Assembly (NCBI GenBank): GCA_963790025.1
Contig: CAWBMP010000004.1
Location: 992,001-1,056,000, forward strand
Source of the DNA: Nitrospirota bacterium
GTDB taxonomy: Bacteria > Nitrospirota > Thermodesulfovibrionia > Thermodesulfovibrionales > Dissulfurispiraceae
Direction: 5' to 3'
Length of the DNA: 64,000 nt
How positions within the stretch are numbered: position 1 is the stretch's first letter; every line of letters begins with the position of its first letter. The notes under the pieces are model-generated. The model was not told the origin of the DNA. It did not search any database and saw nothing but the letters and a program-made list of their open reading frames with translations. Position numbers and translations under genes: made by a program. Positions 19,360 through 22,671 of this stretch are shown here, in pieces.

Positions 19360-22300
19360 TCATTTATCATGAAACTGACCTGATGTCAAACACCCTGTTC
19401 CTGCACGCACCCGTTTGCCGGTGATTATCCTTGACGCATTGCTTTCAAGTGTATCTATCCTACCCTCAAATGCTGCATTAGCCAAAATCGTGGTTGTCCT
19501 CTGAAATGCTGCCGACGCAAGAAAACTTTTTGAGTACAGCGGTATCTGACTGATGCCGAGGAGCACGGGAGTCGCTGTCGGAGGCTTCAAGCCTCTTCGC
19601 CGGGTCCTGTCACACTCATCTTCAAATTCGCTCTTATGAATAATATCACCTGTCAGAAACCTTGCCCCCCGGCTGTCTGTAACTTTCACAAATCCGGTCA
19701 TCTGGCTAAGTATTATTTCAAAATGCTTGTCATGTATTACCACTCCCTGTTTGCGGTATATCTTCTGGGCTTCATCGAGTAAATATTTCCACACTGCTCC
19801 GCCACCTGCAGCATGCAACAGATCATGGGGGTTGACTGCACCGTCAATGTTACTGAGCTCCGCCGCTCTGCGCGGCCTTCTTGCTTCAAGAAGGTCAATA
19901 ACCTCCGGAAGCCCGCCGGTTATGTCCATGGGAGTGACAACTGCTCCACCGGTATGAAATGTTCGCAGGGTAAGCTGGGTCCCGGGCTCACCTATGGACT
20001 GAGCTGCGATAATACCCACCGCGTCCCCTGTCTCTGCGGGCCTGCGGCTGCCGACATTGAATCCGTAGCAGCGCGCACAAACGCCGCGTTGCGCCTTGCA
20101 GGTAAGCACAGACCGCACTTTGACCTTTTCTATTTTTGCCTTGCTGATTTTTGCCGCTGTCGCTTTATCCAAAACGGTGCCATACGATACGAGCACAGTG
20201 CAGGAGTCTATGTCCAGAACGTTATCTGCCAATGCCCTGCCGGTTATTCTCTCCTCCAGAGAAATTTCTACTGTACCGCCGTTCTTCAGCGGTCCAAGGT
20301 AAATGCCTTCGAGCGTCCCGCAATCATCCGTAGTTACGATGAGGTCACGCGCAGCACTCACCAGCCTTCTCGTAAAATAGCCCGCCGCCGGCGTCTTCAT
20401 GGGGCCATCCACCCTGCCCTTTCGCGCCCCGTGCGTGGAAAGAAAAAACTGGAATGCACTTAACCCTTCTCTGAAATTCGATGTAATCGGCATTTCTACA
20501 ATTTCACCCGTGGGCTTGGCCATCAAACCCCTCATGCCGTTTATTTGGCGTATCTGGTTGAAGTCGCCTCTCGCGCCAGAATCACACATCATAAAAAGGG
20601 CATTGGATTCTACATGCCGGTCTTCTTTTAATACGCGCATCGCTTCAGATGTTATCCTGTCGGTTGCTCTCGTCCATACGTCGATTTCCTTATTATGCCT
20701 TTCGTTGTCAGACATCAAACCGGTTTCATAATGGCTCCTCACCTCCGCTGCTTCCTCCTCTGCCTCAGCAACAATGGCCGCCTTTTCGGAAGGGACGAGC
20801 ATGTCATCAAGACAAAGCGATATGCCCGACAACGTCGCATATTTAAACCCAATGCCTTTTATCTCATCCAGAAACCTGATCGTCTCCCTGACGCCGCACT
20901 TTTCATAGCACAACTCGATTAAGCCGGCAAGTTCCTTTTTATTTAAGACTTTATTTATTACCGCGAAGGGTATACCTGCTGGAGTTATGGCATAGAACAG
21001 CACCCTTCCAGCCGTTGTTCTTACCAAGGCGCCATCTATTCTGACCTGAATGCTGGAATGTTCTTCTACAATATTGTTTGCATATGCAATACACACCTCG
21101 TCCACATCCGAGAAAAGCATTCCTTCCCCTTTTCCCCTTTTTCCCGATTTCCCATCGCTGGTCAAATAATAAATACCCAGGACAATGTCCTGAGACGGCA
21201 ATAAAGCAGGCCTGCCGTTGGCCGGATGGAATAAATTGTTAGTGGACATCATGAGGACCCTCGCCTCTATCTGTGCTTCAAGTGAGAGAGGCACATGCAC
21301 TGCAATGGTATCTCCGTCAAAATCGGCATTGAAGCCCGAACACACAAGAGGATGGAGCCTTATTGCAGCGCCTTCAACAAGGACAGGATCAAAGGCTTGC
21401 ATGCTTAATTTATGCAAAGTCGGCGCCCGGTTTATTATGACTGGATGCTCGGCAATTATATCATCGAGGGCGTCCCAGACTTCTGGTTTCTCTTTTTCAA
21501 AAAGCCGCTTTGCCTGTTTCAGCCTTGGGGCAAACCCATTTTTAATAAGCCACCGGTATATAAATGGCCTGAAAAGCTCAAGTGCCATTGCCTTCGGAAT
21601 GCCGACCTGATGGATTTTCAATTCCGGCCCTATAGTAATATGTGCCCTTCCGGAATAGTCGACCCTTTTGGCAAGAAGATTATGTCTGAATATTCCACTC
21701 TTAGAGCTTATCATCTCTGAGAGCGATTTAAGCGGCCTTTTTTGAGACCGGTTTTTGACGGCAACATTCCTGCCATTGTCGAGCAGGCTGTCAACTGCGG
21801 CCTGAAGAAGCCTTTTTGCATTCTGAAGTATTATTTCTGGAGCGCCGAGGTGAATAAGTCTTCGCAAGCTTTGATTTTTGTAAATGACCTTGCTATAAAG
21901 CAGATTAAGATCGGAGGCAACAGTAGTCCCGGCGTCAGGAAAAATTATGGGGCGCAGGTCAGGGGGCAATACAGGCAGCATGTCTAAAATCATCCACTCC
22001 GGTTTGTTTCCGGACTTCAGGAGTTTCTCGATCAAAGAGAGTCTGCTTCTTTTTCTCAGGGATAACGTGCCATTCTCTTTAAGTCCCTTCGGAATGGCAT
22101 CCAGGTCAAGGCCTGTAAGTAGTTTCCTGATCGCTTCCGCACCGGTTTCAACATGGAAATGATCGCATGAAGTCCGGTATTTTCTGTACTCTTCATGTGT
22201 AATTGTCTGGTTCTGTTTGAGACCGCTGTCGCCCGGATCAATTACAACATAAAATTCGTATTGCACGATTTTTTGGACCTGCCGGGGAGGCAGTCCCAGT

Positions 22301-22671
22301 ATCCTTGCAAGAACGCTTTTAGGCCCTTTGTAATACCAGATGTGCGCAACAGGCGCAGCGAGAGTTATGTGGCCGAGTCTTTTTCTTCTCTCTTCCGGTT
22401 CCAGCAGCCCCGTACCGCAAGTCTTACATGAGGCTGCTCCACCGTTATCTGTGCCACAAGAACATTTACCCTTTCTTACCGGGCCGAATATTCCTTCGCA
22501 GAATAACCCATTTTTTACCGGGCCGCCATTTTTTAAACTGAATGTTTCCGGCGAAGACACCTCGCCATAAGATAATAAACTCTTCCCGAGGGGACTTAAA
22601 AGACCGATTCTAAGAGAATCAAATGCCTGATTATCGATCATAGGTTGTTGGCTGCAGGGACATGCCTCCAT
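19360..22671 (-). CDS. rpoC: Orphan, shortened DNA-directed RNA polymerase beta' subunit paralogue (1103 aa)
   Basis: GLFCEGIFGP, RVDYSGR, NRAPTLH, NADFDGD, STHGARKG, SIGEPGTQLTLRTFH, DITGGLP, SFLASAAFQ, RAGTG; no rpoB or ribosomal protein genes nearby. Confidence 0.95.
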   Translation of the reverse strand: MEACPCSQQPMIDNQAFDSLRIGLLSPLGKSLLSYGEVSSPETFSLKNGGPVKNGLFCEGIFGPVRKGKCSCGTDNGGAASCKTCGTGLLEPEERRKRLGHITLAAPVAHIWYYKGPKSVLARILGLPPRQVQKIVQYEFYVVIDPGDSGLKQNQTITHEEYRKYRTSCDHFHVETGAEAIRKLLTGLDLDAIPKGLKENGTLSLRKRSRLSLIEKLLKSGNKPEWMILDMLPVLPPDLRPIIFPDAGTTVASDLNLLYSKVIYKNQSLRRLIHLGAPEIILQNAKRLLQAAVDSLLDNGRNVAVKNRSQKRPLKSLSEMISSKSGIFRHNLLAKRVDYSGRAHITIGPELKIHQVGIPKAMALELFRPFIYRWLIKNGFAPRLKQAKRLFEKEKPEVWDALDDIIAEHPVIINRAPTLHKLSMQAFDPVLVEGAAIRLHPLVCSGFNADFDGDTIAVHVPLSLEAQIEARVLMMSTNNLFHPANGRPALLPSQDIVLGIYYLTSDGKSGKRGKGEGMLFSDVDEVCIAYANNIVEEHSSIQVRIDGALVRTTAGRVLFYAITPAGIPFAVINKVLNKKELAGLIELCYEKCGVRETIRFLDEIKGIGFKYATLSGISLCLDDMLVPSEKAAIVAEAEEEAAEVRSHYETGLMSDNERHNKEIDVWTRATDRITSEAMRVLKEDRHVESNALFMMCDSGARGDFNQIRQINGMRGLMAKPTGEIVEMPITSNFREGLSAFQFFLSTHGARKGRVDGPMKTPAAGYFTRRLVSAARDLIVTTDDCGTLEGIYLGPLKNGGTVEISLEERITGRALADNVLDIDSCTVLVSYGTVLDKATAAKISKAKIEKVKVRSVLTCKAQRGVCARCYGFNVGSRRPAETGDAVGIIAAQSIGEPGTQLTLRTFHTGGAVVTPMDITGGLPEVIDLLEARRPRRAAELSNIDGAVNPHDLLHAAGGGAVWKYLLDEAQKIYRKQGVVIHDKHFEIILSQMTGFVKVTDSRGARFLTGDIIHKSEFEDECDRTRRRGLKPPTATPVLLGISQIPLYSKSFLASAAFQRTTTILANAAFEGRIDTLESNASRIITGKRVRAGTGCLTSGQFHDK

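Follow-up and report, generated by a model that had tools for sequence, protein, structure and literature searches.

The rpoC' gene, a divergent and shortened form of the gene for the beta-prime subunit of RNA polymerase (RNAP), lies in a 64,000-nucleotide stretch (the window) of contig CAWBMP010000004.1 from a sulfur-cycling Nitrospirota bacterium of the Dissulfurispiraceae. On balance, it is probably an accessory beta-prime paralogue, kept under selection in a narrow Dissulfurispiraceae/Thermodesulfovibrionales group, that alters the behavior of the polymerase. In the textbook view, bacteria have one core RNAP whose specificity is set by sigma factors; known exceptions to a single core are a second beta subunit in some actinomycetes and two alpha subunits in Francisella. 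A prior sequence-only reading of the window had singled out the gene as an orphan rpoC carried in a conjugative and type IV pilus island, encoding either a swap-in subunit or a decoy. The gene itself proves to be as described there, and the ideas attached to it have fared unevenly.

The reading frame runs through 1103 codons without an internal stop, and its product (P0001) scores 1262.6 bits against the NCBIfam equivalog TIGR02386 for rpoC, for which the cut-off is 963.5. Pfam Rpb1 domains 1-5 are all matched, the domain order is that of canonical RpoC, and the catalytic motif, two zinc sites, bridge helix, trigger loop and clamp helices are all in place. The second zinc site consists of C784/C858/C865/C868, equivalent to C814/C888/C895/C898 of the enterobacterial beta-prime (1407 residues, E. 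coli-style) that serves throughout as numbering reference, and the trigger-loop RTFH occupies residues 903-906. The uninterrupted frame, NADFDGD motif, zinc sites and RTFH reported from the sequence alone all stand. Codon usage is typical for the window.

19360..22671, minus strand: rpoC' (P0001), putative divergent, shortened RNAP beta-prime paralogue of 1103 residues, defined by its open frame and profile matches
21310..21330, minus strand: catalytic NADFDGD, residues 448-454, invariant in 16/16 members of the lineage described below
22417..22464, minus strand: N-terminal zinc site C70/C72/C82/C85

The setting of the gene differs from the canonical one, in which rpoC directly follows rpoB in rplKAJL-rpoBC. 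A Pfam scan of the 53 open reading frames (ORFs) of at least 150 residues in the window found no rpoB, rplL or rpsL, and the small ORFs in the intergenic gaps, inspected by eye, include groES and toxin-antitoxin genes and no ribosomal protein gene. The absence of these neighbors, already asserted in the sequence-only reading, is thereby confirmed; the actual neighbors are a thioredoxin-like/TPR gene downstream and a PIN-domain fragment and FKBP isomerase gene upstream. Sigma-like, beta-like (Rpb2-type), integrase and relaxase genes are likewise missing among the scanned ORFs.

Relatives of this protein form a well delimited set. In a protein search, the nearest matches to P0001 are ten full-length proteins of 1053-1127 residues (P0002-P0011, 66-77% identity) and two fragments, followed by five longer proteins of 1306-1401 residues (53-59%), after which come ordinary Nitrospirota rpoC at 48-55%. 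The rpoC' lineage comprises 16 sequences, 11 full-length short forms including P0001 and five long forms, from Thermodesulfovibrionales/Dissulfurispiraceae metagenome-assembled genomes (MAGs); all 16 are open reading frames, they share 54-79% identity, and public records label the lineage proteins plainly as beta-prime. The lineage was compared with 38 canonical rpoC, consisting of 25 of Nitrospirota type (22 database proteins plus loci L001, L002 and L005) and 13 loci from other phyla. In a tree of all 54 sequences, made with a quick LG+G4 search in which long-branch effects are possible, the 16 members form one clade with an SH-aLRT support of 100, separated from the canonical set by a branch of 0.52 + 0.39 changes per site (0.91), as against mostly 0.02-0.1 for internal canonical branches. 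The phylogeny that had been proposed as a check on the gene thus sets rpoC' apart. Housekeeping rpoC genes would be expected to group with those of their phylum and to evolve at a similar rate; the rpoC' clade does not nest inside the Nitrospirota canonical clade. Identities computed over 1057 shared alignment columns tell the same story, with the seven lineage members compared being 45-54% identical to any canonical rpoC (P0001 itself 50-53.5% to those of Nitrospirota and 48-50% to those of other phyla), whereas canonical rpoC are 64-87% identical among themselves (74-87% within Nitrospirota, 64-76% across phyla).

The lineage is also scarce. When a lineage profile was run over 1.84 billion representative sequences, only three of the best 150 matches belong to it (P0002, P0016 and the fragment P0256), and none of the other 147 carries the four lineage signatures. 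When 72,556 plasmid and 50,697 phage records were searched with P0001 by tblastn, every match fell below 60% identity and no lineage member appeared; matches occur in 71 plasmid and 86 phage records, and the top ones listed are records with ordinary rpoC annotation, chromosome-sized records or unannotated ones. The rpoC' lineage is real, narrow, rare and fast-evolving.

What distinguishes these proteins from canonical beta-prime is the loss of whole modules together with an orderly set of substitutions. P0001 has lost the SI3 insertion and the jaw, both losses ending cleanly at domain borders, as well as the last 35 residues (the C-terminal tail) and three short loops of enterobacterial beta-prime. 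The long forms retain the SI3 insertion and the jaw, so the short clade represents a derived, streamlined state. P0001 alone has an extra 16-residue deletion in the trigger loop, where the other short forms retain that remnant of the insertion; its loss leaves P0001 with a minimal trigger loop.

19873..19989, minus strand: trigger loop, residues 895-933, minimal, with M932L; 187 residues (enterobacterial 942-1128, the SI3 position) missing after residue 911
19840..19845, minus strand: jaw-loss junction after residue 943; 52 residues (enterobacterial 1161-1212) missing, with jaw limits taken from PMC3778932, in excerpt
20344..20430, minus strand: bridge helix, residues 748-776, with lineage-fixed L783R, A784V, A787P, A791P, L796F, V803A and Q805R (enterobacterial numbers)
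21772..21897, minus strand: clamp helices, approximately residues 259-300, in which 4/8 sigma-2 contacts are changed (R275K, R278S, E295A, M298L)

The many changes at normally invariant positions noted in the sequence-only reading can be put in numbers. The 38 canonical rpoC have 450 invariant alignment columns, of which the lineage keeps 248 and mostly keeps a further 86 (334 together); 59 are variable, 18 are deleted and 39 are switched, that is, occupied by a different residue that is itself conserved. The switched columns cluster in the bridge helix, clamp helices, zipper, lid and region H. Two of the seven fixed bridge-helix switches introduce prolines (A787P, A791P), and the long forms share the bridge-helix changes; the clamp helices carry a further switch, E301A; the residue following the Asp triad changes from Q to T; and the zipper, lid and C-terminal conserved motif are replaced by lineage-specific sequences that are themselves conserved. 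The canonical sequences of bridge helix, zipper, lid and region H, invariant from Enterobacteria to Nitrospirota, are not found in rpoC'. Because the invariant columns are largely kept while the switches are clustered and conserved, rpoC' appears to be under selection for a modified job and not decaying.

The same conservation bears on the suggestion that rpoC' might be inactive in catalysis and serve as a decoy or regulator by titrating beta or sigma. Alterations of sigma-contact and bridge-helix residues would suit such a role, as would the weak ribosome-binding site of the gene. Yet the Asp triad, R903 and H906 of the trigger loop and the eight cysteines of both zinc sites are invariant in all 16 members, and N448-D454 and 248 of the 450 invariant columns have been conserved despite divergence to 54-59% identity, all of which would be needless in a decoy; the idea, raised in the sequence-only reading, is highly improbable.

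Whether rpoC' is an extra copy or the only rpoC of its genome is central to any interpretation. Judged from its relatives and from the 64-kb window that constitutes the DNA read, a canonical rpoBC very likely coexists in the same genome, and rpoC' is very probably an extra copy. In a MAG of the same family (locus L005), the canonical order nusG-rplKAJL-rpoB-rpoC is intact, and its rpoC product, 1373 residues long with a TIGR02386 score of 1819 bits, shares 50% identity with P0001. The groEL gene of the window provides a second yardstick: it is ordinary, scoring 720 bits to E. coli GroEL chains and being 86-94% identical to at least 119 other groEL clusters among the matches listed, including many assigned by name to Nitrospirota or Dissulfurispiraceae. 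Fast evolution is thus not general in this genome. Close rpoC' clusters number 13 (P0002-P0012, P0014) against those at least 119 groEL clusters among the matches listed, and for single-contig groEL clusters on contigs of 279,719, 356,714, 686,944 and 1,255,295 bp there is no rpoC' on a contig of equal size. Most close relatives must therefore use another rpoC. The alternative that rpoC' is the sole housekeeping rpoC, moved out of the rpoBC operon and evolving fast, draws on its score above the family cut-off, on its fully intact catalytic parts and on the absence of a canonical copy from the 64-kb window. Against it stand the 50% identity to the L005 rpoC, where canonical rpoC within the phylum share 74-87%, the ordinary groEL of the same genome, the scarcity of rpoC' clusters relative to groEL clusters and the position of the clade outside the Nitrospirota canonical clade; we consider it very unlikely.

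The relationship of rpoC' to groEL, about 12 kb away, also speaks to how the gene is inherited. Contigs are equated here by identical size in base pairs. By this measure the groEL and rpoC' of the window lie on one contig of 1,736,176 bp, and relatives of both occur together on contigs of 159,401, 68,242, 33,014 and 27,246 bp, where identities to the window are, in that order, 93/92/92/91% for groEL and 77/73/75/68% for rpoC', the rank order being the same and rpoC' divergence being some 3.3 times that of groEL. Shared contigs with the same ranking of identities fit vertical inheritance at a fixed place near groEL, and on this evidence the gene would seem to be chromosomal and vertically inherited, which is where the comparison points. 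A decaying duplicate, or an artefact of assembly or binning, could be argued from the fast evolution of the lineage, from the 16-residue deletion peculiar to P0001 and from the TraC gene of the window, found in the database only as a 607-residue piece on a 19,170-bp contig. The open 1103-codon frame, the full-length open relatives in at least 15 other sequences, deletions that stop at domain borders, the joint occurrence of groEL and rpoC' in the window contig and in four relatives, and codon usage that matches the window make this the least probable of the explanations considered.

Carriage of rpoC' on a conjugative and pilus island, as the sequence-only reading had it, is borne out only in part. 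The gene does lie near transfer and pilus genes and shares an upstream motif with one and the other. The tra genes, however, begin at 33.6 kb, 11 kb from rpoC' and beyond the FKBP gene, a BamE-like gene and a formate-dehydrogenase-like operon, so rpoC' is near the transfer and pilus genes and not among them. The transfer system itself is only distantly F-like, since its TraC is at most 25% identical to F-type TraC in the plasmid collection. Homologues of this TraC form 13 clusters, and an association of orphan rpoC with TraC, proposed as a further check, was seen for one of the 17 relatives listed, in which the long form P0015 and TraC P0129 (61% identical to the window TraC) both fall on 73,149-bp contigs and are both named as from a Thermodesulfovibrionales MAG; the other 16 do not share a contig with TraC. 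For rpoC' contigs of 159,401, 68,242, 360,502 and 148,282 bp no TraC occurs on a contig of equal size, and conversely rpoC' is missing from the TraC contigs of 293,126 and 686,944 bp, the latter also holding a groEL 94% identical to that of the window. Obligate carriage on a conjugative island finds no support in these cases, in which four relatives share a contig with groEL and not with TraC and two large TraC contigs are without rpoC', with the reservation that the short ones among the groEL-linked contigs would break before tra. As for island ends, no tRNA, integrase, relaxase or flanking repeats were found in the window. The patchy distribution, a ParM-like gene, toxin fragments beside rpoC' and the shared motif do point to an element, and one possibility is that the region from 12 to 33 kb is an old, partly decayed one; on the speculative gene-switch view given below, the gene may first have spread on an F-like element whose contig it still shares in the long-form relative. 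The database copy of the window TraC (36411-39020, minus strand) covers only residues 263-869 (the C-terminal 607), from an internal TTG start; if this shortening marks a contig end, the 19,170-bp contig would cover approximately 19.1-38.3 kb of the window. With TraC represented in this way, the physical join of rpoC' and tra has no independent support.

The motif common to rpoC' and the transfer genes, first noticed in the sequence-only reading, holds up to closer analysis. The 10-bp sequence AAAGTAATAT has six exact sites in the window against 0.19 expected, a number reached in 0 of 100 shuffles, and all six are in sense orientation, 29-151 nucleotides ahead of start codons. With one mismatch allowed there are 20 sites against 5.5 expected. 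No exact copy occurs in the flanks of the window (1-13 kb and 60-64 kb) or in 80 canonical-rpoC loci of other organisms, four of them Nitrospirota. A repeat finder independently recovered the same motif families, including the 21/25 identity between the rpoC' and tra copies.

22698..22722, minus strand: motif region at rpoC', with core AAAGTAATAT at 22701-22710, 29 nucleotides before the ATG; 21/25 identical to the tra-operon copy
13593..13602, plus strand: motif copy ahead of the ParM-like gene
26903..26912, minus strand: motif copy ahead of orf546
46543..46552, minus strand: motif copy ahead of the first gene of the F-like tra operon
53095..53104, minus strand: motif copy ahead of the pilin gene
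59731..59740, minus strand: motif copy ahead of the secretin gene

The sequence ahead of the motif is loosely T-rich without a conserved -35-like element, and AAAGTAATAT resembles either a promoter element of the -10 type or an operator. The upstream region of rpoC' amounts to only about 60-100 nucleotides because the PIN fragment diverges there. Within the tra operon, the 5' part of the PilT-like ATPase ORF contains a seventh, imperfect copy (40054-40078, minus strand) that is 76% identical over 25 nucleotides to the one at rpoC'. This could reflect a promoter inside the operon, or else a start assigned to the ORF too far upstream.

This motif invites the view that the alternative beta-prime, alone or with a sigma-like partner, directs RNAP to AAAGTAATAT promoters and switches on the transfer, pilus, partition and orf546 genes together with its own. 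Six exact sense copies where 0.19 are expected, with none in the flanks or in 80 other loci, are consistent with such a dedicated set of promoters, as are the clustering of lineage changes in the zipper, lid and clamp helices, parts that touch promoter DNA or sigma, and the P0015 and P0129 contigs of equal size. Recognition of a -10 element is normally the task of sigma rather than of beta-prime, however, and the window is without a sigma-like gene; moreover, the four rpoC' contigs without TraC and the two TraC contigs without rpoC' show the two apart. On these grounds the proposal is unlikely. A related and similarly speculative possibility, to which we give little weight, is that exchange of a core subunit acts as a gene switch, whereby the streamlined beta-prime, co-expressed with conjugation, pilus and partition genes via AAAGTAATAT, would retarget the host polymerase to that promoter class through its altered zipper, lid and sigma-docking helices and so set up a self-reinforcing program for DNA-transfer functions.

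As an accessory paralogue, rpoC' would act by substitution. Since all catalytic parts are retained, its product most likely replaces the housekeeping beta-prime in a fraction of the alpha2-beta-omega assemblies. By analogy with E. coli enzymes engineered to lack the jaw (1149-1190) or SI3, the same two modules that are missing here, the resulting second core enzyme would be expected to differ in the stability of its open complexes, in pausing and in elongation. In E. coli, loss of the jaw gives unstable open complexes and resistance to Gp2 (PMC3778932, in excerpt) and loss of SI3 raises the transcription rate (PMC11077087, in excerpt); by extension, the rpoC' enzyme would form open complexes of shorter life, would lack the docking site of Gp2-type inhibitors and would elongate faster. 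Given the changes in its clamp helices, zipper and lid, the enzyme probably also differs in sigma or promoter preference, and the motif-bearing promoter of the gene itself would have the protein made together with pilus, transfer and partition proteins. The comparison has its limits, as the losses in rpoC' are natural, combined and accompanied by many further fixed changes, and the phenotypes are carried over from another organism.

Loss of an inhibitor docking site raises the question of whether rpoC' is instead a protective spare, a beta-prime insensitive to an RNAP inhibitor (a jaw-binding phage protein, or a small molecule acting at the bridge helix or trigger loop) that keeps transcription going once the housekeeping subunit is blocked. 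The missing jaw is the docking site of T7 Gp2, and deletion of 1149-1190 in E. coli confers Gp2 resistance (PMC3778932, in excerpt); seven substitutions are fixed in the bridge helix; the distribution is patchy, like that of an accessory gene; and the resistant rpoB paralogues of actinomycetes offer a precedent (PMC5431353, in excerpt). The bridge-helix changes are also present in the long forms, in which jaw and insertion are retained, so jaw loss is not what founded the lineage. Nor is there a biosynthetic cluster beside rpoC', the nearby AbiEii, PIN and ParE-like genes and fragments have no evident link to it, and no inhibitor is known for these organisms, which leaves this a rather improbable account.

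Several observations weigh against the preferred interpretation of rpoC' as an active accessory paralogue. In E. coli, eight beta-prime residues are listed as contacting sigma domain 2 (PMC10216364, in excerpt); four of these, E295 among them, differ in the lineage. As E295K is reported to impair holoenzyme formation in E. coli (PMC8321222, in excerpt), the rpoC' protein might be unable to bind the housekeeping sigma at all. The two bridge-helix prolines could cripple catalysis rather than tune it. The ATG of rpoC' has no Shine-Dalgarno sequence, whereas the tra, pilin and orf546 genes have one, and the motif might instead be bound by a regulator and have nothing to do with the function of the protein. 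Finally, coexistence with a canonical rpoBC is inferred from relatives, the data being a 64-kb window, and the statements on shared contigs rest on identical sizes, not on sequence.

The wider neighborhood combines housekeeping genes, remnants of toxin-antitoxin systems and the transfer and pilus genes.

13754-14737, plus strand: ParM-like gene
17694-18635: CysE-like gene, after the thioredoxin-like/TPR gene
18726..19319, minus strand: thioredoxin-like/TPR gene (197 residues), start 40 nucleotides past the rpoC' stop, with an in-frame TGA read through (UxxC)
22732..23019, plus strand: PIN-domain fragment (C-terminal half only), divergent from rpoC'
25185-26825, minus strand: orf546, a membrane protein of no known family
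33644-46469, minus strand: F-like tra operon
52447-53040, minus strand: pilin gene
58145-59695, minus strand: secretin gene

The left flank holds, in order, a methyltransferase, an ISNCY transposase, ispG, mltG, groES-groEL, a rhomboid gene, two EEP-family genes and an HD-family gene, followed by a 1.6-kb non-coding stretch and then the ParM-like gene, SDR, HtrA, the CysE-like acetyltransferase and the thioredoxin-like/TPR gene. No terminator-like site was found between rpoC' and this last gene, and the two are probably co-transcribed. The 40-nucleotide spacing requires that the TGA at 19221-19223 be selenocysteine, a reading that raises coverage of the thioredoxin-like Pfam profile from positions 32-104 to 1-104; past this TGA, at a distance of about 17 nucleotides, there is an 8-bp hairpin with a non-significant fold z-score (-1.0). 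The ISNCY-family transposase gene (1370-2668) is bounded by perfect 21-nucleotide inverted repeats (1323/2709) and an 18-nucleotide perfect direct repeat (1298/2760). The stretch 12152-13753, between the housekeeping block and the ParM-like gene, has no convincing ORF, the lowest G+C content in the left half of the window (0.42) and a perfect 20-nucleotide direct repeat with copies 254 nucleotides apart (12162/12416); it could be an element border or an origin.

To the right of the PIN fragment come the FKBP isomerase, a ParE-like fragment (23926-24090), the BamE-like gene, orf546 and the formate-dehydrogenase-like operon; the PIN C-terminal fragment and the ParE-like fragment lie directly beside rpoC'. 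A 112-residue ORF upstream of rpoC' (22737-23075, minus strand) was rejected as a gene, the PIN fragment having its own ribosome-binding site on the opposite strand. An Atlas look-up of orf546 gave scores of 0.87 to unnamed viral clusters and was uninformative. Two molybdopterin-oxidoreductase ORFs prove to be one FdnG-like gene with a TAT signal (27060-30254, plus strand) and a selenocysteine TGA at 27711-27713 (position 218), followed by genes for an Fe-S subunit and an NrfD-type subunit. The transfer genes from 33.6 kb comprise a coupling protein, TraC, the PilT-like ATPase, SLT, TraG_N, TraF, TraU and a PilP-like gene, past which lie AbiEii, two PIN toxin-antitoxin pairs and a type IV pilus set reaching 59.7 kb. 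Toxin-antitoxin parts at 46680-48390 include AbiEii within a 25-nucleotide inverted-repeat pair (46680/47575) and a CcdA-like/PIN pair, and a Phd/PIN pair (53264-53991) lies between the pilin and PilC genes. A c-di-AMP riboswitch (62853-63001, plus strand; 85 bits against a gathering score of 38) precedes an amino-acid-permease/K-transporter-like gene.

Multisubunit RNAPs of phages and plasmids, of the phiKZ and killer-plasmid types, provide one point of comparison, as they place homologues of the polymerase subunits on mobile DNA, in split or extremely divergent form and with a beta-like part of their own. By contrast, rpoC' encodes a near-complete cellular beta-prime, at approximately 50% identity, with no beta-like gene in 64 kb. 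Closer parallels are found among cellular paralogues. The rpoB paralogues of actinomycetes (Nonomuraea) likewise represent a second, divergent large core subunit encoded outside the operon and are thought to give a second form of the polymerase (PMC5431353, in excerpt). They involve the other subunit, beta, in another phylum, however, and differ by point changes in the rifampicin region where rpoC' has lost whole domains; their coexistence with the canonical copy has been shown, which for rpoC' is deduced from relatives. In Francisella, the two rpoA genes (alpha1/alpha2) are also paralogous core subunits that evolved at an accelerated rate after duplication (PMC3294249, in excerpt), but both alphas enter every enzyme as a heterodimer, while a beta-prime paralogue can only substitute. 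Reports of an rpoC paralogue, duplication, orphan or extra copy were sought among 8.1 million papers and 0.36 million preprints, with subscription journals and supplements outside the scope, and nothing relevant was found; nor does the Dissulfurispira literature listed, again with supplements outside the scope, contain anything on the polymerase.

Because rpoC is used as a single-copy marker, paralogues of this kind could inflate estimates of contamination or distort trees of MAGs. For the biology of the polymerase, the shared motif provides a testable link between a variant of the enzyme and pilus and transfer genes, and rpoC', with its jaw and SI3 shed and its bridge helix bearing two prolines, represents a natural experiment on the parts governing pausing, the stability of open complexes and the binding of inhibitors. 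If true, a second, conserved beta-prime would extend the alternative core subunits of bacteria to the catalytic subunit itself.

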